A stretch of 64,000 nucleotides of DNA from Patescibacteria group bacterium. Its GTDB lineage: Bacteria; Patescibacteriota; Minisyncoccia; Moranbacterales; UBA2206. Location: positions 168-64,167 of the forward strand of contig JAUPKF010000002.1 of the NCBI GenBank assembly GCA_030837625.1, given 5' to 3'. The translations under genes and the position numbers were made by a program. The first letter of the stretch is position 1; each line of letters opens with the position of its first letter. The notes under the pieces were generated by a model. That model was not told the origin of the DNA, did not search any database, and saw only the letters and a list, made by a program, of their open reading frames with translations. Shown here in pieces: positions 37,875-64,000 of this stretch.

Positions 37875-37937
37875 ACATAAACAGCCAACAATCTTTTATA
37901 TCCAGAAAATAACGAGTACAACTCGTTTTTTGTTTGC

Positions 37938-45450: not shown

Positions 45451-45494
45451 CAAATTTCTTGTTGTATGTTTCATGTTTTATGCTTCATGAGCTT

Positions 45495-48592: not shown

Positions 48593-49459
48593 ATGCAACC
48601 AAAGAAATCACTAGGACAGAATTTCCTCAGAGATAAAAATATTCTTGATAAAATAATCCGAGCCGCTGATTTAAAGGCGGATGATTTTGTAATTGAAATT
48701 GGTCCCGGAGAAGGCGTACTGACTCTTAAGCTAATTAAACATACTAGTAAGGTTATTGCCATTGAGAAAGACGAGAATCTGGCGGAAAAGTTAGCTAAGA
48801 ATTTTCAATTTTCAATTTTCAGTTTTCAATCAATTTCCAATGATCCAATTTTAAATTTTAAAAATAAAGCCGCTGTTATTGTCGGAGATATGCTTAAAGC
48901 TAACTTGCCCTTACTCATAGAAAATAATTTCGTAAATTCGGATTTATTCGTAGATTCGAATCGGTTTAATTATAAAGTTATCGCCAATATTCCGTATTAC
49001 ATAACGTCGCCGATTATTAAGTTGTTTTTGGAAACAAAATATCCGCCCAAGGAAATGATTCTGATGGTGCAAAAAGAAGTGGCGGAGCGTATCTGCGCCA
49101 GCCCCGGACAAATGAGCATCTTGGCGGTGAGCGTGCGATATTACGCCAAAGCAGAGCTGTTATTTCACGTCGACAGAAAAAGTTTTTGGCCGGCGCCGGA
49201 AGTGGATTCGGCGGTGATACGAATTCATGAAACACGAAACATGAAACATGAAACAAAAGAAGACACAAAGAACTTTTTTAGAATAGTTAAGGCTGGGTTT
49301 TCGGCTAAAAGAAAAATGTTATTAAATAATTTATCCAGCAGTTTGCATTTGGAGAAAAAAATAGTCGAGGAAAAATTGAAAAAGGTCGGGATAGATCCTA
49401 GTCGAAGAGCGCAAGAACTTTCTGTTGAAGAATGGAAAAAATTAGCGAAAATTATGTAG
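48593..49459 (+). CDS. ksgA: 16S rRNA (adenine1518/1519-N6)-dimethyltransferase with three in-frame repeat insertions
   Basis: SLGQNFL, EIGPGEGVLT motifs; inserted segments NFQFSIFSFQSISNDPILNFKNK (GAATTT repeat), FVNSDLFVDSNRF (REP/MITE 48930-48964), IRIHETRNMKHETKED (catgaaac repeat). Confidence 0.85.
   Translation: MQPKKSLGQNFLRDKNILDKIIRAADLKADDFVIEIGPGEGVLTLKLIKHTSKVIAIEKDENLAEKLAKNFQFSIFSFQSISNDPILNFKNKAAVIVGDMLKANLPLLIENNFVNSDLFVDSNRFNYKVIANIPYYITSPIIKLFLETKYPPKEMILMVQKEVAERICASPGQMSILAVSVRYYAKAELLFHVDRKSFWPAPEVDSAVIRIHETRNMKHETKEDTKNFFRIVKAGFSAKRKMLLNNLSSSLHLEKKIVEEKLKKVGIDPSRRAQELSVEEWKKLAKIM
48930..48964. repeat. REP/MITE right-end fragment inserted in-frame in ksgA
   Basis: tcgtaaattcggatttattcgtagattcgaatcgg. 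Confidence 0.6.
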
Positions 49460-49533: not shown

Positions 49534-51300
49534 CTACAGAAAAACAACCCTTACTAAAATCACCCCATAAACAAACACCAACCCCAAAACCGGCCAAAAC
49601 AACTGGCGCGGTTTTATTTTAGGCGAATTTACAACCAAGAACGTCAACGTCCCAAAAATCACCGCCCAAAGAAAAAGATTCAGTTCGTTTAAGAAAAAAA
49701 CGCTTAGCATATACGAGATAAAAAGGTTCGCGGCCACAATAAGTCGTCCTTTTTTTTCGCCAAAAATTACCGGCACCGTCCATATTTCCCCGGCCTTGTC
49801 GCCGGCAATGTCCTTGAAATCCTTAATCGGCAAGGAAATAGTGTACGCAATCAGCAAAAGCAAAGATATTTTCCAGGACAAACTGTGGATAGACTGATCG
49901 TCAGCCGCTAAAATATAGCCCAGAAACAAAATCATAAGCAAAGCCAGCGAGCTGGTGAAAGTCGCCAAAAAAGGAAACTTTTTGAGCCGATATGGAGGCG
50001 CGCTATAAAACCAAGCCAGAATCTGGTACGCCAAAAGCAAGGCGGCAAATGGAAATCCCAGCGTAAGACCGCCCAAAAGCGAGAGTAAAAAACAGGTTAT
50101 CCCCAGCTCCGCGTACTCTTTTGGCTGAAGCACGCCTTTTTGCAAAGGACGCTCCGGATTGGAAATGGCGTCTATTTCAAAATCATATATGTCATTTACC
50201 ACCACTGAAGCAAACCACGCCAGCCAAACGCTGATAAGCAAGGCGAAAACCGCCCCCACGGAAAACAGAGTCAGCTCAAAATTGCCGGGATACGCCAATA
50301 TTCCCAAGCCCAAACCTGCCAAAAACAGCCCCGAATGGTAAACAACCTGTGGATAACGATAGTTTTTTAGCACTGCCGCCAGTTTTTCCCGACTTATTAA
50401 ATAAAATAAGGCCGAGAGTAAAAGGACTAGAAACGGAAAGTAAATTATGTCAAGTTTCCAGGCAAAGGCGTATTTGAGGCTTTCGAAATTAATGCCCCAA
50501 AGCTTGCCTGAAGCGCCAAAAAATTGGGCAATATGAAAGCCCTGGATATCGGAAACAGCCATTTTTCCGCTGAAAAAGTTAAAAACAAAGAAAAAAACTG
50601 ACGGAAATGCTCCCATAAAGAACAGAACAATATATGTTCCCACTGCCGAGAACGCGGTTTTTGCCCAATCTTTTGTCCTCAAAAAAACAAAGGCTGAAAT
50701 AAGGCCGATCGCCAAAAGAAAAGTGATTTTGGTGCCAAAATAGACAATTCCACTGGGCAAATTGCCAAATATCGAAACAAAATAGCCAAACAGCTCTTTG
50801 GGACCGCCCAAAAGGTAAAAACTCCAGAATATTTCTCCGCCGGTTCTGGCCATATCGATAAGCGGGGGAAGAAGCATAAGGAGAAACGACCAAACAAAAA
50901 GATAAGCCAGTTTTTGCGGCTTGGTTTTGAGAACAAGACTTATGAATATCCAAATCAGAAGATAGGTCAGGGAAAAGAAAAATAAGTTATGCGCCAATTC
51001 GATGACCGCTTCTTCCGGCGTAACCGGCGAAGTAAGGGCAATAAATTGTTCGATGAAATTACGCAAAATCAAAATCGCCAAAAAAATCGCCACGCATGAA
51101 ACGAGTCTGATTTCTTTTTTGGTGATTTCCCTCGCGAAAGACGCCAATCTTTTCATATTTTCAATGTAACAGACAAAAGATATTCCAGCAACTATAAAAA
51201 AGTTATCAACAGCCATATTTTCTTTTCCGAATTTACAAAAAGTGTGGTATAATTTTGTCAAGAATGAATACTCCAAAGACAGCCAAGCTAATTTTGGCAA
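49534..51300 (-). CDS. polytopic membrane protein: N-terminal membrane domain fused to a UbiA-family prenyltransferase domain
   Basis: Asp-rich motif VNDIYDFEIDAI at about aa 370 followed by UbiA-like TMs; about 10 N-terminal TMs. Confidence 0.6.
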   Translation of the reverse strand: MPKLAWLSLEYSFLTKLYHTFCKFGKENMAVDNFFIVAGISFVCYIENMKRLASFAREITKKEIRLVSCVAIFLAILILRNFIEQFIALTSPVTPEEAVIELAHNLFFFSLTYLLIWIFISLVLKTKPQKLAYLFVWSFLLMLLPPLIDMARTGGEIFWSFYLLGGPKELFGYFVSIFGNLPSGIVYFGTKITFLLAIGLISAFVFLRTKDWAKTAFSAVGTYIVLFFMGAFPSVFFFVFNFFSGKMAVSDIQGFHIAQFFGASGKLWGINFESLKYAFAWKLDIIYFPFLVLLLSALFYLISREKLAAVLKNYRYPQVVYHSGLFLAGLGLGILAYPGNFELTLFSVGAVFALLISVWLAWFASVVVNDIYDFEIDAISNPERPLQKGVLQPKEYAELGITCFLLSLLGGLTLGFPFAALLLAYQILAWFYSAPPYRLKKFPFLATFTSSLALLMILFLGYILAADDQSIHSLSWKISLLLLIAYTISLPIKDFKDIAGDKAGEIWTVPVIFGEKKGRLIVAANLFISYMLSVFFLNELNLFLWAVIFGTLTFLVVNSPKIKPRQLFWPVLGLVFVYGVILVRVVFL

Positions 51301-52313
51301 GCTTAGTTTTTTTAAGCTTGGTTTTTCGTTTTTCCATTGAAAACAGTCTTGGCACTACCAACAATATTTTTCTTGATTCCGACCAAGACGGACTTACTGA
51401 CGCCGAAGAAAGAACTTACGGCACCGATCCGCGAAACCGCGACACGGACAGCGACAGCTACTGCGACGGCGCGGAAGTAAAGGCTGGTTACGACCCGCTG
51501 AAACCGGCGCCAGGCGACAGGATTGTGAGTGCGGAAATAACACCCAGTGAGAAGAACGACACAGTGAGCGAGGTGCTTGGAGAAAACACGGAAAACAAAA
51601 ATTTGACCCAGGAGATGGCGGAAAAGTTATCCGAGATAACCAAAGAAATCGACTCGGAAAACCAAGAAGTAACTTTGGAAGAAATCCAGAGCCTCATCGA
51701 TGACGCTTTGAACTCGGGACAAAAAGAAATCGAACTGCCGGAAGTTACCAAAGACGACATTCAAATCAAAAAACAAAACTACTCCGGACTCTCCGAAGAA
51801 GAAGCGCAAGAAAGAAGAAAAGAAGATTTTTCCGAGTACATCATCGGCGTTTACTATATTTTCTCCAGCAATTCGCCCAAACCCATCACCTCTTTTTCCG
51901 ACATCAACAAAGTTATGTCATCCTTCACTAATGAAATCATTTACGCCCTCGATTCCAAAAGTTCGTCTTCCTTGGACGATTTGAGCCAAATCAGCGAAAA
52001 GTCCCTGGAACAGCTCCAAGACGTGGAAGTGCCGGAAGAATTGGTTGACTTGCATATCAAAGCTCTGAAATTCGCCATGTACGCCCAGTCTCTCAAAAGC
52101 AACATCGATTCCGAACAGGACGATCCGTTGGAAGACATTGTCCGGCTTTCCAAAATCCAGGTCTACGTGGAAAATCTGATGAGTTTTTCCACCGAAGCCG
52201 CCATGAAGTTCGAAGAATACGGAATGGAATACGACGACGGCACCAAAGAAATTTTGAAAAAATACGGACTGGAGTTTGAAAATGAGAGCGAGGAGGATGA
52301 TGAGGATGAATAA
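51255..52313 (+). CDS. secreted acidic protein with thrombospondin-type-3-like Ca-binding repeat (DSDQDGLTDAEE...DTDSDSYCDG)
   Basis: signal peptide; DxDxDG repeats; highly acidic C-terminal tail. Confidence 0.55.
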   Translation: MSRMNTPKTAKLILASLVFLSLVFRFSIENSLGTTNNIFLDSDQDGLTDAEERTYGTDPRNRDTDSDSYCDGAEVKAGYDPLKPAPGDRIVSAEITPSEKNDTVSEVLGENTENKNLTQEMAEKLSEITKEIDSENQEVTLEEIQSLIDDALNSGQKEIELPEVTKDDIQIKKQNYSGLSEEEAQERRKEDFSEYIIGVYYIFSSNSPKPITSFSDINKVMSSFTNEIIYALDSKSSSSLDDLSQISEKSLEQLQDVEVPEELVDLHIKALKFAMYAQSLKSNIDSEQDDPLEDIVRLSKIQVYVENLMSFSTEAAMKFEEYGMEYDDGTKEILKKYGLEFENESEEDDEDE

Positions 52314-52315: not shown

Positions 52316-52440
52316 GTATACTAAAATCCAAATTTCCAAATCCAAATGTCAAATAAAACCCCAAATCAAAAATCCAAAATTTGTCATTGAGATTTGGGAT
52401 TTTGTTGGATATTGAGATTTTGTCATTGGGATTTTTGAAA
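52316..52440. repeat. GGATTTT/CCAAAT low-complexity repeat, intergenic
   Basis: ctaaaatccaaatttccaaatccaaatgtcaaataaaaccccaaatcaaaaatccaaaatttgtcattgagatttgggattttgttggatattgagattttgtcattgggatttttgaaag. Confidence 0.6.
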
Positions 52441-52447
52441 GTTTTTT

Positions 52448-53434
52448 ATGTTAAATATAAAAACAATATATAAAAAATTCTTCACCGTAATCTTCGTCTT
52501 TGTTGTTTTCCTGTTTTCTCCCATAAAATCAGCCAACGCCGCGCTCTGGCCGGCCATTGATCCGCAGTACAAGCAGATGCTGGAAGAAATCCACGAGCGC
52601 ATCACCGGCATTATGCTGGGAATGCTCAAGCAACAAGCTATGACGATGCTCAACCAGCAAATCAGCAAACTGGTCGGCGGCAGTTCCACGTCTTCCGCTA
52701 TGTTCATCACCGATTGGCAAAGCTACCTGGTCAAAGAACCGGAGGAGAAAACCAAACTGTATATGAACGATTATTTGAGCCAAGTCACCAAAGGCCGCGG
52801 CTCGTCAACAGGTTACATCGGCGAAGGATTTTCCGGCTCGGGAAATTATTCCAAGCAGTTGGTGGAAATCGGCAAGAAAACCACCGTGGACAAACCGGCC
52901 GTTCCACAGATGACCTATGAAGGCGATCCGTCGCAAATGTTCGCCGGCGGAAATTTCAAAAACCTGAGCCTGTATCTTTCCGGCATCAACAACCCCTGGG
53001 CTTTTTCCATCAACGCCCAAAGCGAATATCAGAAAAAACTGGAAGAGGAAAAGAAAATCGCCGAAACCAAAGCCGTCGCCAACGAAGCTTTCAAGAGCAA
53101 CGAAAAAAAAGTTGACGACAAGGGCAAGACCATCGTAATCACGCCCGGTTCGCTCATCAAAGAAAATATGGCCAATGTCCAAGATCTTGGCAACAAGATC
53201 ATCGCCTCCGCCACCCATCCGGAAGAAATCATTTCAGCCGTCGTCCAGCAAATGATCACCAAAGCCATCCAGCAAGGCGTCGGAGAGATTGAAAAAGCGG
53301 TTCAGAAAGAATTCGACAGTGTCAGCGGAAAAATCGGCACCCAGCTCAACACCCAAACATCCACCAGCGGTCCCGGAACGCAATACAAAACCGAATACGC
53401 CAAGTGGCTGGAGAAGATGAAAACAGGGAACTAA
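52448..53434 (+). CDS. secreted hypothetical protein (328 aa)
   Basis: signal peptide ...PIKSANAA; the 5' leader and first codons (MLNIK) are near-identical to those of the gene at 53925. Confidence 0.55.
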   Translation: MLNIKTIYKKFFTVIFVFVVFLFSPIKSANAALWPAIDPQYKQMLEEIHERITGIMLGMLKQQAMTMLNQQISKLVGGSSTSSAMFITDWQSYLVKEPEEKTKLYMNDYLSQVTKGRGSSTGYIGEGFSGSGNYSKQLVEIGKKTTVDKPAVPQMTYEGDPSQMFAGGNFKNLSLYLSGINNPWAFSINAQSEYQKKLEEEKKIAETKAVANEAFKSNEKKVDDKGKTIVITPGSLIKENMANVQDLGNKIIASATHPEEIISAVVQQMITKAIQQGVGEIEKAVQKEFDSVSGKIGTQLNTQTSTSGPGTQYKTEYAKWLEKMKTGN

Positions 53435-53464
53435 TCAGCAGAAAATCCAAATTTCCAAATCTCA

Positions 53465-53863
53465 ATGCCAAACAAAATCCAAAATCCCAACAAAAATAGC
53501 AACAGCTACGACCTCATAGAAAGAACGGCTAAATTTGGAGAAGATGTTATTGAGTTTGCCGGAACATTACCTAGAAATGAAATTAATCGACCACTTTTAA
53601 GTCAAATAGTGAGATCTGGAACAAGCATTGGAGCTAATTATATGGAAGCCGATGGAGCAGTATCGAAAAAAGATTTTGAAAACAAGATTGGCATTTGCCG
53701 AAAAGAAGCTAAGGAGAGTATGCATTGGTTTAGAATGATTGCCAAAGCCAACCCGAACCATAAAGACAAATGCAGAGAGCTATATAAAGAATCCCAGGAA
53801 TTTGTATGGATATTTTCATCCATCATAAATAGTTCCAAAAACAACAGCAAGAACAAAAAATAA
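53465..53863 (+). CDS. four-helix-bundle protein (TIGR02436-like)
   Basis: YDLIERTAKFGEDVIEF...SQIVRSGTSIGANYMEADGAVSKKDFENKIGICRKEAKESMHW, typical of this family. Confidence 0.7.
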   Translation: MPNKIQNPNKNSNSYDLIERTAKFGEDVIEFAGTLPRNEINRPLLSQIVRSGTSIGANYMEADGAVSKKDFENKIGICRKEAKESMHWFRMIAKANPNHKDKCRELYKESQEFVWIFSSIINSSKNNSKNKK

Positions 53864-53920
53864 TTGTGATTTGGGATTTTATTGGATATTGAGATTTTGT
53901 CATTGAGATTTTTGAAAGCT
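53862..53920. repeat. GGATTTT repeat / duplicated leader
   Basis: aattgtgatttgggattttattggatattgagattttgtcattgagatttttgaaagc, near-identical to 52380-52440. Confidence 0.6.
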
Positions 53921-53924
53921 TTTT

Positions 53925-56060
53925 ATGTTAAATATAAAAATAAAAAATAACTTAATTCTGGCTGTCTTTTTTATCATGGCGGTTGTTTTGGGATTTGGCG
54001 CCGTCAAAGTCGAAAGCGCAAGCGCTTGGGATTGCGTCTGTGCAGGGAAAAACCTTACAGATCCAGGAACAATCATTCGCGTAAAGTGTAATGACACTGG
54101 TTGGTGGCCAACTCAAGACTGTAGAGATGTCTGTAGTAAGGATTGTAAAGATAAAGGATTTACCGGAGGAGTAATATCAGTAACAGGAGCCCCTCCTGGA
54201 GCCAAGATGGAAGGAGCAAATGATGTATGCCAAGGGCTTGGCATTACCACCGCCAGCGTATCCACATTGTTCAATTGTCTATTGCTTCATGTACTAAACT
54301 TTTTAACTTGGATTCTACAGGCAGCGGCATCCCTTTTTATAGCCATAATCGATCCGAAAAATTTAACCGATGTTATAAGCAATAAAATCATATACGAGAT
54401 ATGGACACTGGTTAGAGACACACTGAACGTCGCTTTTATTTTGACGCTTCTTTTTTCCGCCTTCGCTACTATTTTCCAGGTAGACAAATTCAGCTATAAG
54501 AAAATCCTCCTCACGCTCGTCATTATGGCGCTTCTGGTCAATTTCAGTTTTCCTATCGCCCGCGTCATTATTGATTTCTCCAATGTCATAATGTATTACT
54601 TTCTCAATGGACTTGAGTTCAAACTTCAAAACAAGACAGGAATAAGCAGCTTGTTCTCCAACATAGCCGATTTTGGAAGACTTAAAGACATTTTACATCC
54701 TAAGGCTGGAATTTATGCAGATACTTCATACCTGGTAGCCTCCGTTATTTTTGTTTTCATTTTGGGAGTAACTTTCCTGACTATCGCTATCCTATTCGTT
54801 ATACGAACCATCGCTCTAGGCGTCCTAATGATTTTCTCTCCTCTGGCCTTTGTCGGATCAATTGTCCCATTTCTTTCTTCCCACGCCAGCAAATGGTGGA
54901 CTAATCTTTTCAATTATTCTTTTTTTGGACCAATAATGGTTTTTATGATCTATGTTTCCGTGAGAATGATGGACTCGATTAGCGTTGCAGGAGCATCCAT
55001 AGACAGCATTGCATCCACCACGTCCGGAGACCCAAGCGTTGTTGCGGCTATCTCATTTTTTGCCATTCCCATCGTCATCCTTTGGATCGGCATCGGCACC
55101 GCGCAAAGTATGTCCATCGCCGGCGCCGGCGCGGTAGTGGGGAGAGCGAATAAGTTTATGAATTGGGCGGGAATGAAGTTCAGTGGCCTTGATTGGGGAA
55201 ATAGAAGACTTAAGGCGTACCAAACAGAAAGAAAGAAAAGAGCAGATGAACGATTCAAGGATAATTGGGGTCAAAGATTGGGACGAAGTATCAACAGGAC
55301 ACAAGACAGAATTCATGGCGCATTGCCTATCCCAGGCAGAGCAAGAGCTCAAAGAAGATTGGAGAATTTGCACAATGCCGACGTCAGAGAACATATGCAA
55401 AGAATCAATGACATAACAAATGAAGATGAGCTAGCAAATCTATTTGATCAAGCAGGAAGTGAGGCTGAAAGGGAAGCTATTCTTAGAAGAGCGGCTGCAA
55501 TTGGCGGCACAAGCACCATTTTGAATAGAGCAGGACAAACCAACGACATTGATGGTTTCACCACTTTCATGCAAAATAACTTCGGAAATACTGACAGATC
55601 GGCAAGGCTCGCATCTACAATATCTGGTTTGGAGAGCGCTCGACACAATACTCAATTTAGCGGAGTTTCATCATATGTTGGAAATCAATATCAATATAAT
55701 CAAGGAACGCCTGGTGGAGCGAATCGCATCGATGATGCGGTTTTCGCCGCAGTTGCTGGAGAACATCAGCAAAATATGTTCAGGAACCTAAGAGCCGGGC
55801 AAATAGTTACACGGGGTGCCGGAGGAAACATAGTAGGAATGAACAACCAATTTGAAGCTGTTTTGCAAAGAGTGGGGGATGATGCCTTGTTCGGCCAATA
55901 TATAACTCCGGCCGCGGGAAATAACAATTATCAATTAAATCAAGTTCCTCAAGCTGTTGTTGACCAATTGACACAAGCGGTAAACGCGGGACACCTACCA
56001 CCTGCCGGATCAAGAACGGAAGCCTTCTTTGAAGCTCTTAGAGCACAAGGAAGAATTTGA
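53925..56060 (+). CDS. VirB6/TrbL-like polytopic membrane protein with N-terminal Cys-rich ectodomain and Gln/Asn/Gly-rich C-terminal tail
   Basis: signal peptide; 8-Cys module (WDCVCAGKN...KCNDTGWWPTQDCRDVCSKDCKDKGF); at least 8 TMs; low-complexity tail; neighbours are VirB3/VirB4 homologs. Confidence 0.6.
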   Translation: MLNIKIKNNLILAVFFIMAVVLGFGAVKVESASAWDCVCAGKNLTDPGTIIRVKCNDTGWWPTQDCRDVCSKDCKDKGFTGGVISVTGAPPGAKMEGANDVCQGLGITTASVSTLFNCLLLHVLNFLTWILQAAASLFIAIIDPKNLTDVISNKIIYEIWTLVRDTLNVAFILTLLFSAFATIFQVDKFSYKKILLTLVIMALLVNFSFPIARVIIDFSNVIMYYFLNGLEFKLQNKTGISSLFSNIADFGRLKDILHPKAGIYADTSYLVASVIFVFILGVTFLTIAILFVIRTIALGVLMIFSPLAFVGSIVPFLSSHASKWWTNLFNYSFFGPIMVFMIYVSVRMMDSISVAGASIDSIASTTSGDPSVVAAISFFAIPIVILWIGIGTAQSMSIAGAGAVVGRANKFMNWAGMKFSGLDWGNRRLKAYQTERKKRADERFKDNWGQRLGRSINRTQDRIHGALPIPGRARAQRRLENLHNADVREHMQRINDITNEDELANLFDQAGSEAEREAILRRAAAIGGTSTILNRAGQTNDIDGFTTFMQNNFGNTDRSARLASTISGLESARHNTQFSGVSSYVGNQYQYNQGTPGGANRIDDAVFAAVAGEHQQNMFRNLRAGQIVTRGAGGNIVGMNNQFEAVLQRVGDDALFGQYITPAAGNNNYQLNQVPQAVVDQLTQAVNAGHLPPAGSRTEAFFEALRAQGRI

Positions 56061-56075
56061 TTATTTTAGACTTAT

Positions 56076-57383
56076 ATGCAAAATAGCTTAGAACAAACAA
56101 GAAAAAGGCTTGAAGAAATAATTGCCTTGGATGACATTCAAAAAGCTTTTAAGCTTGAAAAAGAATTAGAAGAGGGCTTAAAAAAATATCATTTTTCTGA
56201 TAACGATAAGAATATTTGGTCAAGCTTGCTTTACAAGCTACGTGGACATTTTTTGCCATGGGCCACATCTAACAAGTTTGAGAATCTGATACAAAATGAT
56301 CTTTTGAATTTATTGCAAAGCATAGACATTAACCTAAAAGATCGCTTTAATTTGCGAGTCATGCCCTTTCCCAAAGATTCGCAAGATTTTGTAAAAATTG
56401 ATTACCTGAAAATGTTTCTAAAAAACAGGGAATTTATTGGCAAAATAACTATATCGCGCTGGCTCAAGGAATATGAAGAGTTTGTAAATTACAAACAAGG
56501 AACAAGCCTTGACAAAAAAAATTTCTTAGCCAGTAATAAAAACTCCACGGAACTAATCGATGAAGAAAAGACTACTTTAATAAAGGTTCTGGATATTTTC
56601 GACTATATCAAACCAAGCTTCGATTACAAAGACGACATAATCAATCAAAAAATTTATGATACGCCCTCGACTGAAGCAGCTGTAGCGACAAGAAGTGCAC
56701 TTAACAACATGCCTCCTGAAGCTAAGCTGATAAAACTATCTTTCTCCGACGCGCTGAAGAAATATCCCGAGCTGGGCGAACAGTTGGTGACGTCGAATAA
56801 AATCAGGCTGAAAAGTTTTCCCGATTCGGTGCGGCCGTCGATCAAGAACTGGCTGTCGGATTATACTTTTAATCTGGGATACGAAAACCACAACACCATC
56901 GTTCGCGGAAATTATTTGTTCCAAAACGAAAACGCGCGAGCGTTGAATTCACTTGATCGGGAAAAACTTAGCTATGTTTTGAAAAGTTTTGATGAAAACG
57001 GATTGGTGACAGTGAACATAACAACTAAGCAAATTGTGTTTCCGGCACCGTCAAGGAGCAATGAGCAAGAAACAATGAACAATAGAATTTCTAATCCGCC
57101 TAATAAAATTACAAATCCCTCTGTAGGCTCAGGTTTCCGCCCTGAACCTGCAAGCAGAAATATTGAACCTGAGATAAGAACAGAAAGAATTCCTGAACCG
57201 GCAAAAACCAGCCTGCCTTCCAACAACAATATGGACAAAATGCAATTTTCCTCTCCGCAAACGCTGCCTTTCGAAAAAGAAAAACTCGCACCCCAAAGCC
57301 TGCCTCTCCGCATCACACCCATCCCCAGGAAGAATGTTGAAGAAAGAGAACTGCCGAGGAACTTGGTGAACTTAAAAGAGTAA
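56076..57383 (+). CDS. hypothetical protein with Pro-rich C-terminus (435 aa)
   Basis: intact ORF inside the secretion-like cluster; followed by a REP/MITE at the stop codon. Confidence 0.5.
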   Translation: MQNSLEQTRKRLEEIIALDDIQKAFKLEKELEEGLKKYHFSDNDKNIWSSLLYKLRGHFLPWATSNKFENLIQNDLLNLLQSIDINLKDRFNLRVMPFPKDSQDFVKIDYLKMFLKNREFIGKITISRWLKEYEEFVNYKQGTSLDKKNFLASNKNSTELIDEEKTTLIKVLDIFDYIKPSFDYKDDIINQKIYDTPSTEAAVATRSALNNMPPEAKLIKLSFSDALKKYPELGEQLVTSNKIRLKSFPDSVRPSIKNWLSDYTFNLGYENHNTIVRGNYLFQNENARALNSLDREKLSYVLKSFDENGLVTVNITTKQIVFPAPSRSNEQETMNNRISNPPNKITNPSVGSGFRPEPASRNIEPEIRTERIPEPAKTSLPSNNNMDKMQFSSPQTLPFEKEKLAPQSLPLRITPIPRKNVEERELPRNLVNLKE

Positions 57384-57452
57384 CCCGATTCGAATCTACG
57401 AATAGCATTCGTAAATTCGCAGATTTGTAGACATTCGTTGATTCGAATCGGA
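57384..57452. mobile_element. REP/MITE (ccgattcgaatctacgaat...attcgttgattcgaatcgg)
   Basis: starts at the taa stop; terminal inverted repeats ccgattcgaatc / gattcgaatcgg. Confidence 0.7.
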
Positions 57453-57460
57453 TAAAGATT

Positions 57461-57850
57461 ATGCTATTCAACGTCCCACAATTCATCGACATCGAAGACA
57501 AAATCGTCGGCCCGCTGACCGCCAAACAGCTGGGCTGGTTGGGATTGGCCGGAGTGATTCTTCTGATTCTCTGGAATTTTCTCGACACTCAAGCGATGAT
57601 CATCGCCGCCGTTGTCGTCGGCGGAGTTTTCGGCGCGCTGGCGTTCTACCGCCCGTACAACCAATCTCTCATCCAATTTATTTTTTCCTCATTCCTCTTC
57701 GCCACCCGCCCCAAAATCTATATCTGGCGGAGATTCTATGATAGTATGAATACAGAAAAGAAAACCGACAAAAAAATTGAAATCGTTAAGGAAAGAAAAA
57801 AGTTGAACAGGGAGAAGATAGGAGAAATAGCGAAGAGACTGAATTCTTAA
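57461..57850 (+). CDS. PrgI/VirB3-like small membrane protein
   Basis: N-terminal VPQFIDIEDKIVGPLTAKQLGWLGLAGV, matching the PrgI-family signature; two TMs. Confidence 0.6.
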   Translation: MLFNVPQFIDIEDKIVGPLTAKQLGWLGLAGVILLILWNFLDTQAMIIAAVVVGGVFGALAFYRPYNQSLIQFIFSSFLFATRPKIYIWRRFYDSMNTEKKTDKKIEIVKERKKLNREKIGEIAKRLNS

Positions 57851-57888
57851 CCCGATTCGAATCTACGAATGAATCCGAATTCACGAAT
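57851..57888. repeat. REP/MITE left-half element
   Basis: cccgattcgaatctacgaatgaatccgaattcacgaat, starting at the stop codon; contains the atgaatccgaat used as the start of the next ORF. Confidence 0.65.
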
Positions 57889-58270
57889 AATAAAAACAAG
57901 CATAAATGTTTTATATCCGGAACTATCTTACACTATAAACGGGATTTGTTTTAATGTGCATAATAAATTAGGAAGGTTTTGCAGAGAAGTTCAATACGCC
58001 GATGAATTGGAAGCGGAACTTATCAAGAAAAAAATTCCCTATAAAAGAGAATCCAGAATATTAAAACAAGATAAATTTACTCGGAACATAATCGACTTTA
58101 TTGTAAACGACTGCATAATACTGGAACTCAAGGCAAAAAGCATTATAACAAAAGATGATTATTATCAAGCAAAGAGATACCTGATCTCATCCAATAAACA
58201 ACTGTGTCTTATTGTCAACTTCAGAGATACCTACTTAAAGCCTAAAAGAATTTTGCATAATAATTCGTAA
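57869..58270 (+). CDS. GxxExxY-family protein (PD-(D/E)XK-like)
   Basis: LSYTINGICFNVHNKLGRFCREVQYADELEAEL...IIDFIVNDCIILELKAKS...YYQAKRYLISSNKQLCLIVNF matches the GxxExxY family; the N-terminal MNPNSR is repeat-derived. Confidence 0.65.
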   Translation: MNPNSRIIKTSINVLYPELSYTINGICFNVHNKLGRFCREVQYADELEAELIKKKIPYKRESRILKQDKFTRNIIDFIVNDCIILELKAKSIITKDDYYQAKRYLISSNKQLCLIVNFRDTYLKPKRILHNNS

Positions 58271-58307
58271 ATTCGCAGATTCGCATACATTCGTAGATTC
58301 GAATCGG
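58264..58307. repeat. REP/MITE right-half element
   Basis: ttcgtaaattcgcagattcgcatacattcgtagattcgaatcgg. Confidence 0.65.
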
Positions 58308-58311
58308 TATT

Positions 58312-59001
58312 ATGGAGACTCTACATTCCTCACAACTAGCCAACAAAGCCACGACCACCGCCACCCAAAAGTATCTCGACGTTGCGGAAGTTAAGGAAGA
58401 CGTGGTGGTTTTGAAATCCGGATCTATTCGGGCGATTTTAGCCGTATCGGCTATCAATTTCGAGCTCAAATCCACCGAGGAACAGGAAGCGATTATCGGG
58501 CAATACCAGAACTTTCTCAATTCCATCGATTTTCCCTTGCAAATCCTCATCAGCTCCCGGCGGCTCAATATGGAAAATTATTTGAGTTTCCTAACCGATA
58601 AAGAAAAGCAGCAGCCCAACGAGCTTTTGCGGATGCAAATCGCCGAATACAAAAACTTCATCGACCAGCTCGTCAGCGTTTCCAACATAATGGACAAGAA
58701 TTTCTACATCATCGTTCCTTTTTCGCCGATTGAAAACAAAGACAAGGGATTCTTCTCCAAAGTTTCCAGTATGCTAAACCCCAAAAGAGAAATTATGGAA
58801 AAAAGAGAAAGTTTTGAAATGATGAAAAGCCAGCTATACCAAAGAGTCGACCACATCATCGCCGGACTGGCCGGCATTGGTCTTCGCATAATTCCGCTCA
58901 AAACCGAAGAACTGATCGAACTGCTGTTCAACTCCTACAACCCCAGCGTGTACAATTCAGTGGAATTGAAGGAAGTAAGCAAGCTGGAGCTACTGAAATA
59001 A
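58312..59001 (+). CDS. virB4: VirB4/TrbE N-terminal domain, encoded as a separate ORF
   Basis: YLDVAEVKEDVVVLKSGSIRAILAVSAINFELKSTEEQEAIIGQYQNFLNSIDFPLQILI fits the conserved VirB4 N-terminal pattern; 229 + 604 aa together match full-length VirB4. Confidence 0.6.
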   Translation: METLHSSQLANKATTTATQKYLDVAEVKEDVVVLKSGSIRAILAVSAINFELKSTEEQEAIIGQYQNFLNSIDFPLQILISSRRLNMENYLSFLTDKEKQQPNELLRMQIAEYKNFIDQLVSVSNIMDKNFYIIVPFSPIENKDKGFFSKVSSMLNPKREIMEKRESFEMMKSQLYQRVDHIIAGLAGIGLRIIPLKTEELIELLFNSYNPSVYNSVELKEVSKLELLK

Positions 59002-59152
59002 CCCGATTCGAATCTACGAATGAATCCGAATTCACGTATCCGAATAGCCTGCTACGAATAGGCACATTCGAATGGGCGCATTCGTAGCGCGCTATTCGGA
59101 TGCTTTCATTCGTAAATTCGCAGATTCGCATACATTCGTAGATTCGAATCGG
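59002..59152. mobile_element. full-length REP/MITE, about 150 bp, separating the two VirB4 ORFs
   Basis: cccgattcgaatctacgaatgaatccgaattcacg...internal palindrome ccgaatagcctgctacgaataggcacattcgaatgggcgcattcgtagcgcgctattcgg...cattcgtaaattcgcagattcgcatacattcgtagattcgaatcgg. Confidence 0.75.
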
Positions 59153-59159
59153 CTAAATT

Positions 59160-60974
59160 ATGTTTAATCTATTCAAAAAACAAAATACCGCCGAGAATCT
59201 GGATGAAATCATCGCTTCTGAGAAATTCTATCAAGAGGGCGTGGCGCGCCTCAATGATTTGATCGCGCCCGCGGCCATCAAAATCACGCCGCGCCACATC
59301 CGCGTGGGCGAAACCTTGGCGGAAACGATATTCATCATCACTTACCCCCGCTACCTCCACAGCAACTGGTTTTCTCCGATCATAAACATCGACATGCCGA
59401 TTGATATTTCAATGTTTATCCATCCCATCGAAACCTATGATATCTTGAAGACTCTTCGCAAAAACGCCACCCGGGTGGAATCCCAAGTCCATATCGAACA
59501 GGAGAAAGGACTTATCCGCGATCCGGCTTTGGAAACAGCTATGCAAGACATTGATGAACTGCGCGACAAGCTCCAGCAAGGAACGGAAAAGTTTTTCCGC
59601 TACGGCCTCTATATCACCGCTTACGGCGAGACGGAAAAAGAACTCAACGAACTGGTTCGCAGCATTGAAGCCATTTTGGAAGCGCAGTTGGTTTACGTGA
59701 AACCGGCTATTTTCAAAGCCGAACAAGGCTACAATTCTTCTTTGCCTTTAGCCAACGACGAACTGGACATCGGCACCAGCATGAACAGCGCGCCGCTTTC
59801 CACCACCTTTCCTTTCGTTTCCTCAACCTTGTCTTCCAACACCGGCATCCTCTACGGTGTCAACCGCCACAACAACAGTTTGGTCATCTTTGACCGCTTC
59901 AGCATGGAAAACGCCAATATGGTCATTTTCGCCAAGTCCGGCGCCGGAAAAAGCTATACTGTGAAATTGGAAGTTTTGCGTTCGATGATGCTGGGCACGG
60001 ACGTCGTCATCATCGACCCGGAAAACGAATACAAGCATCTCTGTGAAACTGTCGGTGGAAACTTCGTAAAAATCTCTTTGAATTCCAAAAATCATCTCAA
60101 TCCGTTCGATCTGCCGAAAGTGGCCGAAGATGAAGATCCGGCCGACATTCTCCGAAACAACATTGCTTCACTTTTGGGACTTTTGCACATAATGCTCGGC
60201 AATATCACGCCGGAAGAAGATTCGGTACTCGACCGCGCCATCCGGGAAACTTACGACGCCCGCGACATCACAGCGCAGTCCAATTTGAATATGCTCACGC
60301 CGGAATCCTTTCCCACGATGACTGACCTTTACCAAATTCTCCGCAGTCTGGAAGGCGGAGAAAACTTGGCCATCCGCTTGGAAAAATATACTGAAGGAAT
60401 TTTCGCCGGATTTCTCAACAACACCACCAACATCAAATCCGACAATCAGCTGACGGTTTTCAACATCCGCGATATGGAAGAAGAACTGCGCCCGGTGGCG
60501 ATGTATACCGTCATGCAGTTCATCTGGAACGAAATGCGGACCAACCTGAAAAAAAGATTGGTACTGGTGGACGAAGCCTGGGTAATGATGAAATATGAAG
60601 ACGCCGCTTCCTTTATGTTTGGAATTGCGAAAAGGTGTCGAAAATATTATACTGGACTTACCACCGTCACCCAGGACGTGAATGATTTTTTGAGCTCGCG
60701 CTACGGCAAAGCCATCGTAACCAACTCCTCCATCCAACTGCTTCTCAGACAATCTCCGGCCGGCATCGACGTTATCTCGGAAACATTTTATCTGACCGAT
60801 CAGGAAAAGTTTTTGCTTTTGGAATCCAACGTCGGAGAAGGAATATTTTTCGCCGGCACCAAGCACGTCGCCATCCGCGTGGAAGCATCGTACTCTGAAG
60901 ACCAAATCATCACCACCGACCCCGCCCAGCTTTTGGAAATTGAGAGGGCCAAGAAGGAGTTTGAGGAAGAATAA
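59160..60974 (+). CDS. virB4: VirB4/TraC-type conjugative ATPase (ATPase domain)
   Basis: Walker A FAKSGAGKSYT, Walker B LVLVDEAWVMM, TTVTQDVNDF motif. Confidence 0.8.
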   Translation: MFNLFKKQNTAENLDEIIASEKFYQEGVARLNDLIAPAAIKITPRHIRVGETLAETIFIITYPRYLHSNWFSPIINIDMPIDISMFIHPIETYDILKTLRKNATRVESQVHIEQEKGLIRDPALETAMQDIDELRDKLQQGTEKFFRYGLYITAYGETEKELNELVRSIEAILEAQLVYVKPAIFKAEQGYNSSLPLANDELDIGTSMNSAPLSTTFPFVSSTLSSNTGILYGVNRHNNSLVIFDRFSMENANMVIFAKSGAGKSYTVKLEVLRSMMLGTDVVIIDPENEYKHLCETVGGNFVKISLNSKNHLNPFDLPKVAEDEDPADILRNNIASLLGLLHIMLGNITPEEDSVLDRAIRETYDARDITAQSNLNMLTPESFPTMTDLYQILRSLEGGENLAIRLEKYTEGIFAGFLNNTTNIKSDNQLTVFNIRDMEEELRPVAMYTVMQFIWNEMRTNLKKRLVLVDEAWVMMKYEDAASFMFGIAKRCRKYYTGLTTVTQDVNDFLSSRYGKAIVTNSSIQLLLRQSPAGIDVISETFYLTDQEKFLLLESNVGEGIFFAGTKHVAIRVEASYSEDQIITTDPAQLLEIERAKKEFEEE

Positions 60975-60977
60975 AAC

Positions 60978-61106
60978 CCGATTCGAATCTACGAATGAAT
61001 CCGAATTCACGAATAAAGGCATCCGAATAGCACACTACAAATGTGCCCATCCGAATAACTTCATTCGTGAATTCGTAGATTCGCATACATTCGTAGATTC
61101 GAATCG
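60978..61106. mobile_element. full-length REP/MITE
   Basis: cccgattcgaatctacgaatgaatccgaattcacgaat...catccgaatagcacactacaaatgtgcccatccgaata...attcgtgaattcgtagattcgcatacattcgtagattcgaatcgg. Confidence 0.75.
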
Positions 61107-61115
61107 GATAACGAA

Positions 61116-61688
61116 GTGCTATACGATTACCAAAAACAACAAGCGCTGGAAGAGGCGAGGAGGAGAGATAAAGAGAAAAAAGCCAGAGAAACACTGAAAA
61201 AATACAATGCTGGAAAAAATAAAGGACAGGCAAAAAACGTAACTCAAGACGTTAAAAACAACGCTGAAGCCATAAAGAAAGCTATGACACCGCTGGGATT
61301 CCTCTCGCTTCTTTTCCAAATAAGTATTTTTTCCGATTGGATGTATGGACTGGCTATTTTCGCCGCCGTTCTCAAAGACATCATCGATTTCACCGGACTC
61401 GGCTCACTCCCGGGAATCGGCACTGTCATCACTTTTTGCATATCGATTTTCATCGGCTTTATGATGCTCCTGGGGAGCTTTACGAACGGCGCAGGGAGAA
61501 GACACCAAAAGATTATCAAAAGCTGGTTGATCCTGCTTGGCGGGACAACGATCGAAATGCTTTTTGGCCTAAATTTTCTGCCCGTAGAAACCCTGACTGT
61601 TTTATCCGTTTATGTCTTATATTTAGCCGGCAAGAAACAAGCCCGGGAAGAAAATAAAAGAACATCCGCGCAAGAAAGCTACGCGTGA
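61116..61688 (+). CDS. hypothetical membrane protein (190 aa), member of the secretion-like cluster
   Basis: charged N-terminus followed by 4 TMs. Confidence 0.5.
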   Translation: MLYDYQKQQALEEARRRDKEKKARETLKKYNAGKNKGQAKNVTQDVKNNAEAIKKAMTPLGFLSLLFQISIFSDWMYGLAIFAAVLKDIIDFTGLGSLPGIGTVITFCISIFIGFMMLLGSFTNGAGRRHQKIIKSWLILLGGTTIEMLFGLNFLPVETLTVLSVYVLYLAGKKQAREENKRTSAQESYA

Positions 61689-61693
61689 TAAAA

Positions 61694-61791
61694 CCCGATT
61701 CGAATCAACGAATATATGCAAATCTACAAATACTTCCCTTGTTATTATTTGTAGATTCGTGAATTCGAATTCATTCGTGGATTCGAATCGG
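61694..61791. mobile_element. REP/MITE copy
   Basis: cccgattcgaatcaacgaat...tgtagattcgtgaattcgaattcattcgtggattcgaatcgg. Confidence 0.7.
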
Positions 61792-61802
61792 AATTAGAAG
61801 TT

Positions 61803-62456
61803 ATGTTTATTCTCTCAAAAACATTAATTCAAAACAAAGAATTTCTGACAACCCTGGCGGTGATTTCGGTTTGCCTGGTTTTGCTATTGGCTTTTCCGGC
61901 CGAAAACTCCGCCCAAAACATTACCAAAAGTTTTTTCTTTCTGGTTTTGCTTCCGGCGCTATACATAAAATTTATTCTCAAAAAAAACTTGGCTGAATAC
62001 GGATTAAACGTAAACAATAAAAAGCGCGGAATCGTTTGGGGAGCTTTCGGACTGGCTTTCTCGCTGGCAATCTTTTATTCTCTGGCCAATTACACAAGCC
62101 TCTCCTCCAATTATATTCTGCCCGCTTACGCCATAAGCGATTTCCGTTTTTTCCTGCTGTACGAACTCACTTTCGTTCTTTTCTTTCTTTTTATTAACGA
62201 ATTTTTTTGGCGGGGATTTGTCCTGTTCAGCTTGTCGGAAAAACTTTTTTGGCTGTCCGTGCCGACACAAGCGCTGATTTACCTCACTTTGGCCGCAATC
62301 ACCAAAACTTCCCTCTGGCAGTTGGCACCCTATTTCATATTGTCAGTCACCAGTGGGATTGTCGCCTATAAGACCAAATCGATTGCTTTTTCTTTTGCCG
62401 CTGGAATGTTATTTTTCATAATTTCCGACAGCTACATAGTTTATTCTCTAAAATAA
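61803..62456 (+). CDS. CPBP-family intramembrane glutamic endopeptidase (CAAX protease-like)
   Basis: EExxxR-type motif (INEFFWRGFVLFSL) and a multi-TM topology. Confidence 0.65.
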   Translation: MFILSKTLIQNKEFLTTLAVISVCLVLLLAFPAENSAQNITKSFFFLVLLPALYIKFILKKNLAEYGLNVNNKKRGIVWGAFGLAFSLAIFYSLANYTSLSSNYILPAYAISDFRFFLLYELTFVLFFLFINEFFWRGFVLFSLSEKLFWLSVPTQALIYLTLAAITKTSLWQLAPYFILSVTSGIVAYKTKSIAFSFAAGMLFFIISDSYIVYSLK

Positions 62457-62457: not shown

Positions 62458-64000
62458 ATGTCAAAACTAAACAAAAAACTCGCGTCAATCTTTATTCTGA
62501 TTTCACTGCTATTTTTTTCCGCAATACCCGGCGCGTCAGCCTTTGGCGACTTGGCCGATATTAGCGCGCCGAGCGCGATGAATGACGTTATGAGTGATCT
62601 GGGCGTTGACAAGGACGAATTGAAATACCACATCCAAACTTTCAATGTTTCCCGCCGAAAAAAACAACAGCCGCAGGTCCAGATCAATTTTGATCCCGCC
62701 AATCCCGCCCCGGGCAGAAAAGTCACCGCGGTCGCCACTCCTCTCTATTTTATGAACGATTCGGAAGATTTGTATTTCACCTGGTACCTAAAACCGGCCA
62801 TTTGCCCAGACGAAAGAGAACCTAATGTCACGGGTGAAAAAAAAGAAAAATGCGACCTGAACGGCGACGGCGACGCCACCATCGAGGACTACAAGATAAA
62901 GGCGATGCGGACTTTGGCTAACAATGATTTTGAATGGGAAAAAGAAAGCTATTCCAGCGACTCCGACGGCGACGGCTATAAGGCTATTTGGGGAGGCGAC
63001 GATCAGGGAGGGAAAGAGGAATATTGCTTTATTCATAATATAGACTCAGGCGATGAATATGAAATCGAGTGCGACCAGCATCTTTTCCCCAATATGGATT
63101 CGGACAGCGACATTGAGGCGGGCGACGGATCTTTCGGCGTAAGCGAGGAAGAATTTTGGCGCACCAATCCTCACGACCCGGACACGGCCGACACGGGAAA
63201 CGGCGACGAAGCCAATGTTATCGGACTTGGAATGACTTCTTTTTCCTGGTTTTATGAAGCCGGCGATGAAATCGGCGTAGTTGTTGAAGGCGTTTCCGTC
63301 GAACCGACCCAAGAAGAAGATTCCTCTTATCGCACGATGTGGGCGCTGGTCAACAATAAATGCGAAACAGGCGGAGATGACACTGATTATCCAAAAACAG
63401 ACATAACCGGTCCGACCACCGAAGATGCCGGGGACTGCGTTGACGGATTTGGGACAAAGACGGGGGATACTAACAGACAAACGACGATTGAAAAAGAAGA
63501 ATTCATCGTATCCAACGCCGCCAACATCGCCACCATACGAACAAAATACACCACCACAGTGAGAACCGACGCCGATTGCGACGGACAATATTCCGCTGGC
63601 GAAACTGTCGTCACGATTACAGCATCTTGCCCCGGCGGCGATCTTGATAACGGAGATGCTCATCCCGATATAAATGGCGCTACTTGCAGCGGCATAGATG
63701 TGCCCGAAAATCTCGGCGGCGAATTTACTTCCGAAGACATAAAAAAGGCCTCCGATATCAACGGCTGTTTGTATAGCAACTTGATTGATCCGATGGACGG
63801 CGGAGGGATCGCGGAAAAAATGGAAGTTAATCTATCCTACTTGCCGGAATTTCCCATCAATGACACCAGCGACAACAAAGACGGCGACCAGCTGGTTGTC
63901 CACTCCACCGTGACCAATGCTATGAATACTGGCTATCTGAACTACAAATGGGAAGTATTTGAAAACGACGAACCCAACCCGGATTCCTGGGGAGACGCTA
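62458..64000 (+). CDS. large secreted Asp/Gly-rich (Ca-binding-like, DGDG/DSDSD repeat) protein, 5' partial (runs off the window)
   Basis: signal peptide ...AIPGASAFG; open frame to the window end; repeated DxDxDG, DSDGDG and Cys pairs. Confidence 0.6.
   Translation, partial: MSKLNKKLASIFILISLLFFSAIPGASAFGDLADISAPSAMNDVMSDLGVDKDELKYHIQTFNVSRRKKQQPQVQINFDPANPAPGRKVTAVATPLYFMNDSEDLYFTWYLKPAICPDEREPNVTGEKKEKCDLNGDGDATIEDYKIKAMRTLANNDFEWEKESYSSDSDGDGYKAIWGGDDQGGKEEYCFIHNIDSGDEYEIECDQHLFPNMDSDSDIEAGDGSFGVSEEEFWRTNPHDPDTADTGNGDEANVIGLGMTSFSWFYEAGDEIGVVVEGVSVEPTQEEDSSYRTMWALVNNKCETGGDDTDYPKTDITGPTTEDAGDCVDGFGTKTGDTNRQTTIEKEEFIVSNAANIATIRTKYTTTVRTDADCDGQYSAGETVVTITASCPGGDLDNGDAHPDINGATCSGIDVPENLGGEFTSEDIKKASDINGCLYSNLIDPMDGGGIAEKMEVNLSYLPEFPINDTSDNKDGDQLVVHSTVTNAMNTGYLNYKWEVFENDEPNPDSWGDA

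Follow-up and report, generated by a model that had tools for sequence, protein, structure and literature searches.

A probable chromosomal type IV secretion locus in a Moranbacterales genome and the palindromic elements of its operon

We analysed a 64 kb stretch of contig JAUPKF010000002.1 from a Moranbacterales bacterium (hereafter the window), in which the genes at 51.2-64 kb form a tightly packed, co-directional operon on the + strand according to the list of open reading frames (ORFs) and their translations. This region is very probably a chromosomal type IV secretion system (T4SS) as typical of Patescibacteria, the Candidate Phyla Radiation (CPR), in its Moranbacterales (class Paceibacteria) form, and not part of a mobile element now. 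An earlier note on the window, made from the sequence alone, had described a T4SS-derived machine of non-conjugative appearance; T4SS profile matches and the housekeeping context both bear this out, and we recovered all of its ORFs at the same coordinates on the + strand. The note had also raised the idea of a 'minimal' machine. The non-conjugative nature withstood our analysis, but the T4SS class has already been published (2023-2025 papers) and the locus is an additional member fitting it in every testable feature, so that the system represents no new kind of machine.

VirB4, TrsD, PrgI and VirB6 of the secretion locus

The VirB4-type ATPase encoded at 59160-60974 (+ strand) comprises 604 aa, corresponding to the C-terminal two-thirds of a canonical VirB4. 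It matches the NCBIfam model CD1110 (NF045971) with an E-value of 1e-109 and 368 bits (cutoff 325), further NCBIfam matches being Mbov_0397 VirB4, TraC-F and VirB4_CagE, and Pfam matches being P-loop_TraG (6e-29), AAA_10, DUF87 and TraC_F_IV. The nearest solved relative is the C-terminal domain of Thermoanaerobacter VirB4 (PDB 4ag5; E 2.6e-51), with R388 TrwK coming next (2.9e-9), and the Walker A (GAGKS) and Walker B (LVLVDE) motifs are intact as read from the translation. Rather than falling into a HerA/FtsK-only family with no other T4SS profile in the cluster, the outcome on which the earlier note had staked its proposal, the ATPase classifies as VirB4, as had been claimed, and other products of the cluster match T4SS profiles as well. 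Its sequence matches that of a protein from a metagenome-assembled genome named 'Patescibacteria group bacterium' at 100% identity, and it is 99% identical to a protein of Candidatus Moranbacteria RIFOXYA12_FULL_44_15 and 80-87% identical to the 120 best of 8,000 matches, all of about 600-620 aa. By its profile matches it is a VirB4 of the monoderm (MPF_FATA-like) type.

Directly upstream, 58312-59001 (+ strand) encodes a TrsD-like protein of 229 aa, a free-standing VirB4 N-terminal domain, which matches the N-terminal regions of VirB4 profiles in agreement with its previous assignment (NCBIfam VirB4_plasma, 2.7e-9; TrsD/TraD, 6.2e-9, 36 bits versus a curated cutoff of 200). Its orthologs carry a precomputed PF26593 TraC-like assignment, and a profile search of PDB sequences gave nothing significant. 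Both proteins cover complementary parts of the CD1110 model, i.e. positions 15-119 for the TrsD-like protein and positions 185-734 for the 604-aa VirB4, and judged by this coverage they together constitute one canonical VirB4. They do not show the single-chain layout of canonical VirB4 but form two ORFs with a stop codon and 158 nt between them. Separate genes for TrsD (~228 aa) and VirB4 (~600-620 aa) are present in every related locus having both (79 adjacent pairs), with a median of 31 nt between them (minimum -1). We considered the palindrome located in this gap as the cause of the split and ruled it out, since every relative encodes the two proteins apart, at this short median distance; the 158-nt palindrome is therefore a later insertion into a pre-existing gap. 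The term 'split VirB4' used before is correct in that two complementary ORFs exist and incorrect in the sense of a disruption: from the comparison of the loci, the split is an ancestral TrsD+VirB4 arrangement. The small PrgI/VirB3-like membrane protein predicted previously (57461-57850, + strand) scores 37.5 bits against Pfam PrgI (gathering cutoff 27) and contains two hydrophobic helices in the hydropathy analysis.

The ORF at 53925-56060 (+ strand) encodes an extended VirB6-like polytopic protein of 711 aa. It has no Pfam match at E<=1, including TrbL (PF04610), its sole NCBIfam match is NF046089 (E 0.003), and the profile search against PDB sequences returned low-complexity noise only, making a structure comparison necessary. 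The AlphaFold model of the 711-aa protein found its best matches in TrwI/VirB6 and DotA, and the polytopic helical core of the model is superposable on solved VirB6, supporting a VirB6 fold. Homologs closely related to the window protein (E ~1e-96) match TrbL/VirB6, P0179 reaching 31.1 bits (cutoff 25.9); its earlier naming as VirB6-like is upheld by the structure model and by these matches of homologs, not by a direct Pfam match. The protein consists of an N-terminal signal/anchor, a Cys-rich ectodomain (residues ~34-110), a transmembrane (TM) core (~112-400) and a helical, K/R-rich C-terminal domain of ~300 aa. In comparison to the extended VirB6 proteins TrwI/VirB6 of R388, Legionella DotA and those of Rickettsiales, it differs by a sequence identity of only 12% and by the ~80-aa N-terminal Cys-rich ectodomain of disulfide type and the ~300-aa C-terminal domain, both fast-evolving. 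All eight Cys lie within residues 37-118. Among 94 homologs the N-terminal region usually has six or eight Cys, six being commonest, conservation in 59-72 homologs is seen for five of the eight positions, and TM core and C-terminal domain are almost without Cys. As the Cys positions are shared across these homologs, the Cys-rich ectodomain is, by sequence comparison, a family trait of Moranbacterales VirB6 and not peculiar to this gene; the eight Cys described before are present, their supposed unusualness is not.

Comparison with the related locus L001 suggests that the components diverge at very different rates. VirB4 being 99% identical, we considered L001 as the same strain and rejected this, the DNA identity between window and L001 being only 71-86%. 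The identity to L001 is 99% for VirB4 (dN/dS 0.02) and 96% for TrsD (dN/dS 0.024), and only 48% for VirB6 (dN/dS 0.31) and 51% for p435 (dN/dS 0.34), all ratios being rough because dS is near saturation. p435 is a conserved cytoplasmic protein encoded between VirB6 and PrgI (56076-57383, + strand), a position it holds in ~60 species. It has no TM segment, no Pfam or NCBIfam match and, by profile search against PDB, nothing significant, and it is composed of a variable N-terminal half, a conserved central domain of ~115 aa and a Pro-rich tail (17%, 75% and 56% identity to L001). Differences cluster in three regions, namely ectodomain (29% identity) and C-terminal domain (20%) of VirB6 and, adjoining the latter, the N-terminal half of p435. 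At the sequence level VirB4 and TrsD are thus extremely constrained, and the terminal domains of VirB6 and the N-terminal half of p435 are hypervariable; these three regions may be the module that sets host or substrate specificity in a machine frozen elsewhere.

Chromosomal setting and comparison with known systems

The window is ordinary chromosome, containing gyrA, PNPase, FtsH, UvrD, KsgA, FTHFS, LspA, ComM and 11 tRNAs, and the GC content of the cluster (0.40-0.48) is the same as that of its flanks. Pfam scanning of the cluster genes and of 30 other ORFs of the window, covering every non-overlapped ORF from 280 aa upward and part of the smaller ones but not several of 150-255 aa, revealed no relaxase, type IV coupling protein (T4CP) or VirB11; among the ORFs scanned, the previously reported absence of relaxase, VirD4 and VirB11 is thus confirmed. 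Relaxase and T4CP are also missing from the called genes of the related loci L001, L003 and L004.

Based on 80 species-representative loci and the gene neighbourhoods of relatives, a conserved gene order is observed in ~50 species: following RpfB-like, KsgA and UbiA (- strand), it comprises TSP3, p328, VirB6, p435, PrgI, TrsD, VirB4, p190 and CPBP, and continues with a ~900-aa surface protein, d295, (d176), a pilin and d381. The ~150-aa downstream gene of relatives, located ~5-6 kb past the window end, encodes a VirB2-like pilin, which in L003 matches Pfam T4SS_pilin with 27.6 bits (cutoff 26.6). Nine of ten further downstream orthologs match T4SS_pilin only, three of these above the cutoff; d295 has a weak pilin-like match only, and the L001 sequence ends inside the surface-protein gene. 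In the Moranbacterales loci L056-L063 (~70% VirB4 identity) the order is pilin, d295, PrgI, TrsD, VirB4, p190 and then RpfB-like and KsgA, with no VirB6 or p435 upstream of PrgI; this gene order indicates that the module is rearranged in this subclade.

Helicobacter ComB and archaeal Ced work without a relaxase or coupling protein, and a DNA-uptake (competence) T4SS of this kind was proposed by the earlier note itself. It would be compatible with the missing T4CP and relaxase among the window ORFs scanned, with weak CedB and CedD matches of the ATPase (2e-14 and 5e-6) and with a ComM-like gene (45252-47021) 6 kb upstream. However, the CedB and CedD scores (53 and 25 bits) are far below the cutoffs of 700 and 600 and below the VirB4 scores, and therefore reflect the shared ATPase fold only, and ComM is a common housekeeping gene. 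Moreover, competence of Southlakia needs type IV pili and ComEC, comEC being dispensable and the T4SS essential (PMC12857230). We regard a function in DNA uptake as improbable.

The best-matching profile being VirB4 of a Clostridioides conjugative transposon, the NCBI name of the protein being 'conjugal transfer protein TraC' and a tyrosine recombinase gene being present at 28502-29491 might suggest an integrated conjugative element or its remnant, with relaxase, T4CP and integrase outside the window. Against this, RpfB-like, KsgA, UbiA and the gene order are constant in dozens of species, the genes are under extreme purifying selection with no compositional anomaly, and the recombinase is 22 kb off with PNPase, ComM, LspA and KsgA in between. 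Relaxases were found in only 103 Patescibacteria genomes and rarely near virB4 (PMC12102498). With neighbours fixed in ~50 species, an inconspicuous composition and a VirB4 under such constraint, signs of mobility are lacking, and we strongly doubt that the locus is such an element.

The chromosomal Patescibacteria T4SS, our preferred assignment, has been described as having a VirB4 clade related (sister) to MPF_FATA, in which TrsD beside virB4 is the commonest arrangement (1,664 copies), PrgI/VirB3, a VirB6 that is hard to detect by hidden Markov models (HMMs) and VirB2-like pilins; VirB8 is almost and relaxases are nearly absent, the T4CP is in most cases encoded far away, and KsgA frequently lies close by (Quinonero-Coronel et al. 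2025, PMC12102498). The locus shares the chromosomal location, the MPF_FATA-like VirB4 with a TrsD-like gene directly upstream, PrgI/VirB3, VirB6, the missing relaxase and adjacent T4CP and the KsgA neighbourhood, VirB2-like pilins being encoded nearby in relatives. It differs by accessory genes not named there, i.e. p328, p435, p190 and the ~900-aa surface protein as well as d295 and d381 in relatives, which apart from the weak match of d295 gave no Pfam or NCBIfam match here, and by usually one pilin and one pilin-like gene (in relatives) instead of a pilin array. It also differs by having no VirB1-like hydrolase immediately downstream; an RpfB-like G5/DPBB protein is encoded three genes upstream. 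This protein (DUF348-G5-DPBB lytic transglycosylase, 47211-48170) lies upstream of the T4SS operon in many species and is a candidate stand-in for the VirB1 hydrolase.

With the MPF_FATA systems (pGO1/pSK41 TrsC-TrsD-TrsE, pCF10 PrgH-PrgI-PrgJ and CTn2 CD1110) the locus has in common that VirB4 matches the CD1110 family best, that TrsD and VirB4 are split in the manner of the pGO1 subclass, that genes for PrgI and for a VirB6/PrgH-like protein come before VirB4 and that an outer-membrane core complex is absent. In contrast to them, we detected neither a relaxase nor a T4CP, a PrgK-type hydrolase, PrgL/VirB8 or a PrgB adhesin here, relatives of the locus encode VirB2-like pilins, and the location is a fixed chromosomal one with core-gene behaviour. 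To our knowledge, Gram-positive MPF_FATA systems are without VirB2-like pilins.

We propose a model according to which the system would have its origin in the MPF_FATA-type conjugation apparatus of monoderm bacteria. In analogy to the T4SS structure of R388 and to the work on Southlakia (Saccharimonadia), VirB4 together with TrsD would dock on VirB3 and VirB6 in a single membrane and power the extraction and polymerisation of the VirB2-like pilin and/or the passage of substrates via a VirB6-based channel. The Cys-rich ectodomain of VirB6 would be oriented outward, its K/R-rich C-terminal domain and the soluble p435 would be on the cytoplasmic side, and ectodomain, C-terminal domain and p435 would be the fast-evolving, possibly specificity-determining parts. 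Again by analogy, the product would be a host-contact structure for an epibiotic lifestyle rather than a device for plasmid or integrative element transfer. The gaps between the genes have probably been colonised secondarily by two families of palindromic elements, the ORF-filled versions of which carry GxxExxY or four-helix-bundle genes.

In Southlakia epibionticum, T4SS and pilin array are essential for epibiotic growth as judged by transposon sequencing, and comEC is dispensable (Wang et al. 2023, Cell, as reviewed in PMC12857230). Several points weigh against assigning the locus to a Patescibacteria T4SS of this function. These essentiality data stem from Saccharimonadia, another class than Paceibacteria, and the function here is a prediction by analogy. 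The pilin genes lie beyond the window end and their presence in this genome is deduced from synteny, a T4CP or relaxase could be encoded elsewhere in the genome, the 64 kb being part of a 110-kb contig, and no VirB8-like or VirB1-like component was identified in the cluster, p328 not having an NTF2 fold. Lastly, the suggested VirB6 topology with the N-terminus outside and the C-terminus inside derives from the distribution of Cys and charges and from the analogy to VirB6.

Palindromic elements and cassettes in the operon gaps

The earlier note had reported REP (repetitive extragenic palindromic) elements or MITEs (miniature transposable elements with inverted repeats), and palindromes with stable hairpins indeed occur in the operon gaps, with 14 arm matches in the window compared to 0.02 expected. 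They belong to two families, both on the + strand: type A, with arms such as CCGATTCGAATCTACGAATGAATCCGAATTCACGAAT, fills five gaps within 57381-61800, and type B, being A/T-rich with CCAAAT-type motifs, occupies the two gaps 52323-52435 and 53442-53912. Type A elements start at the stop codon and end ~8-12 nt before the following start codon, and their gap hairpins have RNA folding z-scores of -4.5 to -10.7. Four type A elements contain no ORF: 57381-57458 in the p435/PrgI gap, beginning at the TAA stop codon (z -4.5), the nested element 58999-59159 in the TrsD/VirB4 gap (-69 kcal/mol, z -10.1), 60974-61115 in the VirB4/p190 gap (-60.1 kcal/mol, z -10.7) and 61691-61800 in the p190/CPBP gap (z -5.1). 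The fifth is a cassette (57848-58311; arms 57848-57888 and 58271-58307) enclosing a GxxExxY gene (57869-58270; TIGR04256, 71.6 bits; PDDEXK_3, 71.2 bits), the product of which is predicted to be a PD-(D/E)XK nuclease. Its arms are 86% complementary, and the flank score of 24.5 compares to a shuffled maximum of 10.

For type B, the element 52323-52435 in the TSP3/p328 gap (arms 52323-52367 and 52387-52435) is without an ORF and folds with -31.2 kcal/mol (z -2.3 against dinucleotide-preserving and -4.3 against mononucleotide shuffles). Its arms are of the type flanking the four-helix-bundle gene, which is located in the type B cassette 53442-53912 (arms 53442-53490 and 53864-53912; flank inverted-repeat score 21.5, shuffled maximum 12). 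This gene (53465-53863) matches TIGR02436 with 79 bits and Pfam 23S_rRNA_IVP with 54.8 bits and is missing from this gap in most species; for both cassette genes NCBIfam and Pfam support the identities given previously. Terminal inverted repeats in multiple copies, with empty and ORF-filled forms having the same arms, correspond to what defines MITE- and REPIN-type elements, and in terms of sequence the 'REP/MITEs' represent inverted-repeat cassettes in copies that lack an ORF. The same gaps can be occupied in either form: the PrgI/TrsD gap is filled with GxxExxY in the window and holds an empty 133-nt hairpin in L001, whereas the TrsD/VirB4 gap is empty in the window and contains a GxxExxY-filled cassette in L001.

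The 'duplicated leader' noticed before is a direct repeat of 88 nt (52386-52473 and 53863-53950, 92% identical). It takes in the type B right arm together with the start codon and ~8 initial codons of p328 and VirB6, both beginning with MLNIK, and by this sequence the element, or gene conversion between its copies, seems to supply the translation start of both genes.

Across species, flanking inverted repeats exceed every shuffled control in 13 of 15 testable GxxExxY and four-helix-bundle inserts, and every cassette gene identified by HMM (17/17) points in the direction of the operon. GxxExxY arms contain iterated (A/G)CGAAT motifs in four of seven cases, four-helix-bundle arms contain A/T-rich iterated motifs (CCAAAT/TTTCAA), and the arms are homogeneous within and different between genomes. 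The flanks of the elements are A/T-rich (TAA ... ATAA/CTAA) with no clear target-site duplication visible. ORF6N and a 133-aa ORF found in gaps of relatives are not bracketed by inverted repeats and were left ungrouped with the cassettes. Scanning metagenomes with a 19-nt arm identified 48 contigs. In about half of these a second, convergent arm completes a hairpin of 65-105 nt, and two of them have arms ~465 nt apart around a GxxExxY gene. The contexts are tight housekeeping gaps, i.e. Tig/ClpP, HisRS/HIT, upstream of RpoA and GT2/UDP-glucose dehydrogenase, and in-frame copies occur as well, e.g. in MiaA. We considered a specific targeting of the T4SS operon by the cassettes (17/17 inside, P ~1e-6) and rejected it, the same element being present in many housekeeping operons. 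For this reason we regard the elements, judging from their metagenomic distribution, as genome-wide, the T4SS operon being heavily colonised but no unique target.

Two genes of the window outside the secretion operon carry element sequences in frame. KsgA (48593-49459) has an in-frame insert of 10 aa, SDLFVDSNRF, at ~48938-48967, representing a translated type A arm; in other Moranbacterales this site is occupied by other peptides of palindrome origin, and a second hot-spot follows NFQF. UvrD (31082-33535, - strand) contains a complete type A palindrome with both arms (33110-33213; -43.6 kcal/mol), translated as an in-frame peptide of 35 aa (residues 108-142) within the N-terminal helicase domain (Pfam match 39-332).

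Instead of selfish insertions, the intergenic palindromes might be functional operon RNA, i.e. processing or stabiliser hairpins setting the stoichiometry of the T4SS. Their extension from the stop codon to shortly before the next start codon, the very stable folds and the presence in many species would fit such a role. So would the lack of a T-run terminator signature: promoter and terminator scans of the region gave chance-level results, and the hairpins were not called as terminators. However, the elements are sporadic insertions, because most gaps are tiny (medians 1-55 nt); across the species loci only 144 gaps measure 60-300 nt, and 67 of these contain a strong hairpin. Their sequence is specific for the genome and not for the position, the same element is found in unrelated housekeeping operons and in frame in KsgA, UvrD and MiaA, and versions carrying ORFs exist. 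We therefore consider functional operon RNA rather unlikely as the explanation, an RNA role and a selfish-insertion role not being mutually exclusive.

The insertion elements resemble known ones in part. With 23S rRNA intervening sequences (IVS) and MITE/REPIN-type palindromic elements, including those of Rickettsia, they share a long inverted-repeat stem with an optional small loop ORF. One ORF family is the Pfam '23S rRNA IVS protein', and 23S_rRNA_IVP ORFs occur in CPR rRNA insertions (PMC11270868). Likewise shared with these types, the copies are multiple, genome-specific in sequence and inserted in frame in housekeeping genes, the KsgA pattern resembling the Rickettsia elements. Unlike 23S rRNA IVS, the elements here lie in tight gaps of protein operons rather than in rRNA, the window having no rRNA gene and the elements being located between or inside protein-coding genes, and RNA processing is here only a proposal. 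No transposase is associated, and arms composed of the iterated short motifs described above distinguish our elements from all of these types. Literature searches revealed no published description of these cassettes.

Taken together, it is quite possible, if somewhat doubtful, that the cassettes are intervening sequences of mRNA operons, a reading compatible with the VirB6/p435 specificity module as a second one. The GxxExxY and four-helix-bundle families may each be cargo of their own class of inverted-repeat cassettes. Cassettes and ORF-less hairpins may spread in CPR genomes into operon gaps of a few nt, always co-oriented with transcription, and insert in frame even in KsgA, UvrD and MiaA, the stem being tolerated as neutral or processed at the RNA level.

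Accessory genes, neighbouring features and implications

The first gene of the conserved cluster (51255-52313, + strand) encodes a TSP3-repeat secreted or anchored protein (TSP3_bac, 38.3 bits, cutoff 25) with an N-terminal hydrophobic segment (residues 9-30) that is syntenic in ~46 species loci. It is followed by p328 (52448-53434, + strand), a conserved all-alpha protein, either secreted or anchored in the membrane, for which no structural match was obtained and which is without the NTF2 fold of VirB8. p190 (61116-61688, + strand), directly after VirB4 in ~60 species and without a Pfam or NCBIfam family match, has a Lys-rich N-terminus followed by a predicted small multi-TM membrane part; the hydropathy scan shows one hydrophobic segment (residues 94-126), and the multi-TM reading is by eye from the translation. 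The CPBP/Rce1-like intramembrane protease recognised before (61803-62456, + strand) scores 25.3 bits against Pfam Rce1-like (cutoff 22.4), and its position is conserved in relatives. The ORF at 62458-64000 (+ strand) runs off the window and encodes the N-terminal 514 aa of a Cys-/Asp-rich secreted surface protein of ~800-1200 aa. Orthologs of 792-1212 aa follow CPBP in relatives, the one of L003 having 14 Cys and a C-terminal hydrophobic anchor segment (916-950). No Pfam match was obtained for the protein, and its description as 'Ca-binding-like' finds no HMM support, only Asp-rich motifs being visible. In the VirB6/p435 gap of seven species (L001, L023, L034, L043, L046, L048 and L050) a recurrent ORF of ~133 aa (L1_133) occurs, which has one hydrophobic segment, no flanking inverted repeats and no Pfam match and is probably a genuine accessory gene, not a cassette.

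Outside the operon, a tRNA-Met(CAU) gene (28166-28458) is interrupted by a group I intron of ~221 nt in the anticodon loop (exon 1 28166-28199, exon 2 from 28421). ARAGORN calls tRNA-Met(cat) only with the exons joined, and the tRNA scan of the intact sequence missed the gene. The tyrosine recombinase gene (- strand) lies beside tRNA genes and is followed by a LysM-CHAP hydrolase and UvrD. At 34-38 kb the GC content is lower (0.37-0.39), and TrmB-like regulators, a Bro-N protein and a PycTM-like protein (Pycsar effector, below cutoff) are encoded; this lower-GC stretch of the region 28502-38534 may be an integrated element or defence islet.

For the biology of CPR bacteria, the T4SS is one of few candidate host-interaction machines and is essential in the only species tested. 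The locus presented here provides conserved unnamed partners of this machine, namely p328, p435, p190, the CPBP protease and surface proteins, and the distinction of frozen (VirB4, TrsD) from fast-evolving parts (VirB6 termini, p435) would help in choosing structural and host-range targets. The repeat analysis makes two widespread families of small proteins, GxxExxY and four-helix-bundle, accessible to testing, and serves as a warning to annotators that palindromic elements can be the source of 'split' genes and of odd inserted peptides in CPR genomes.

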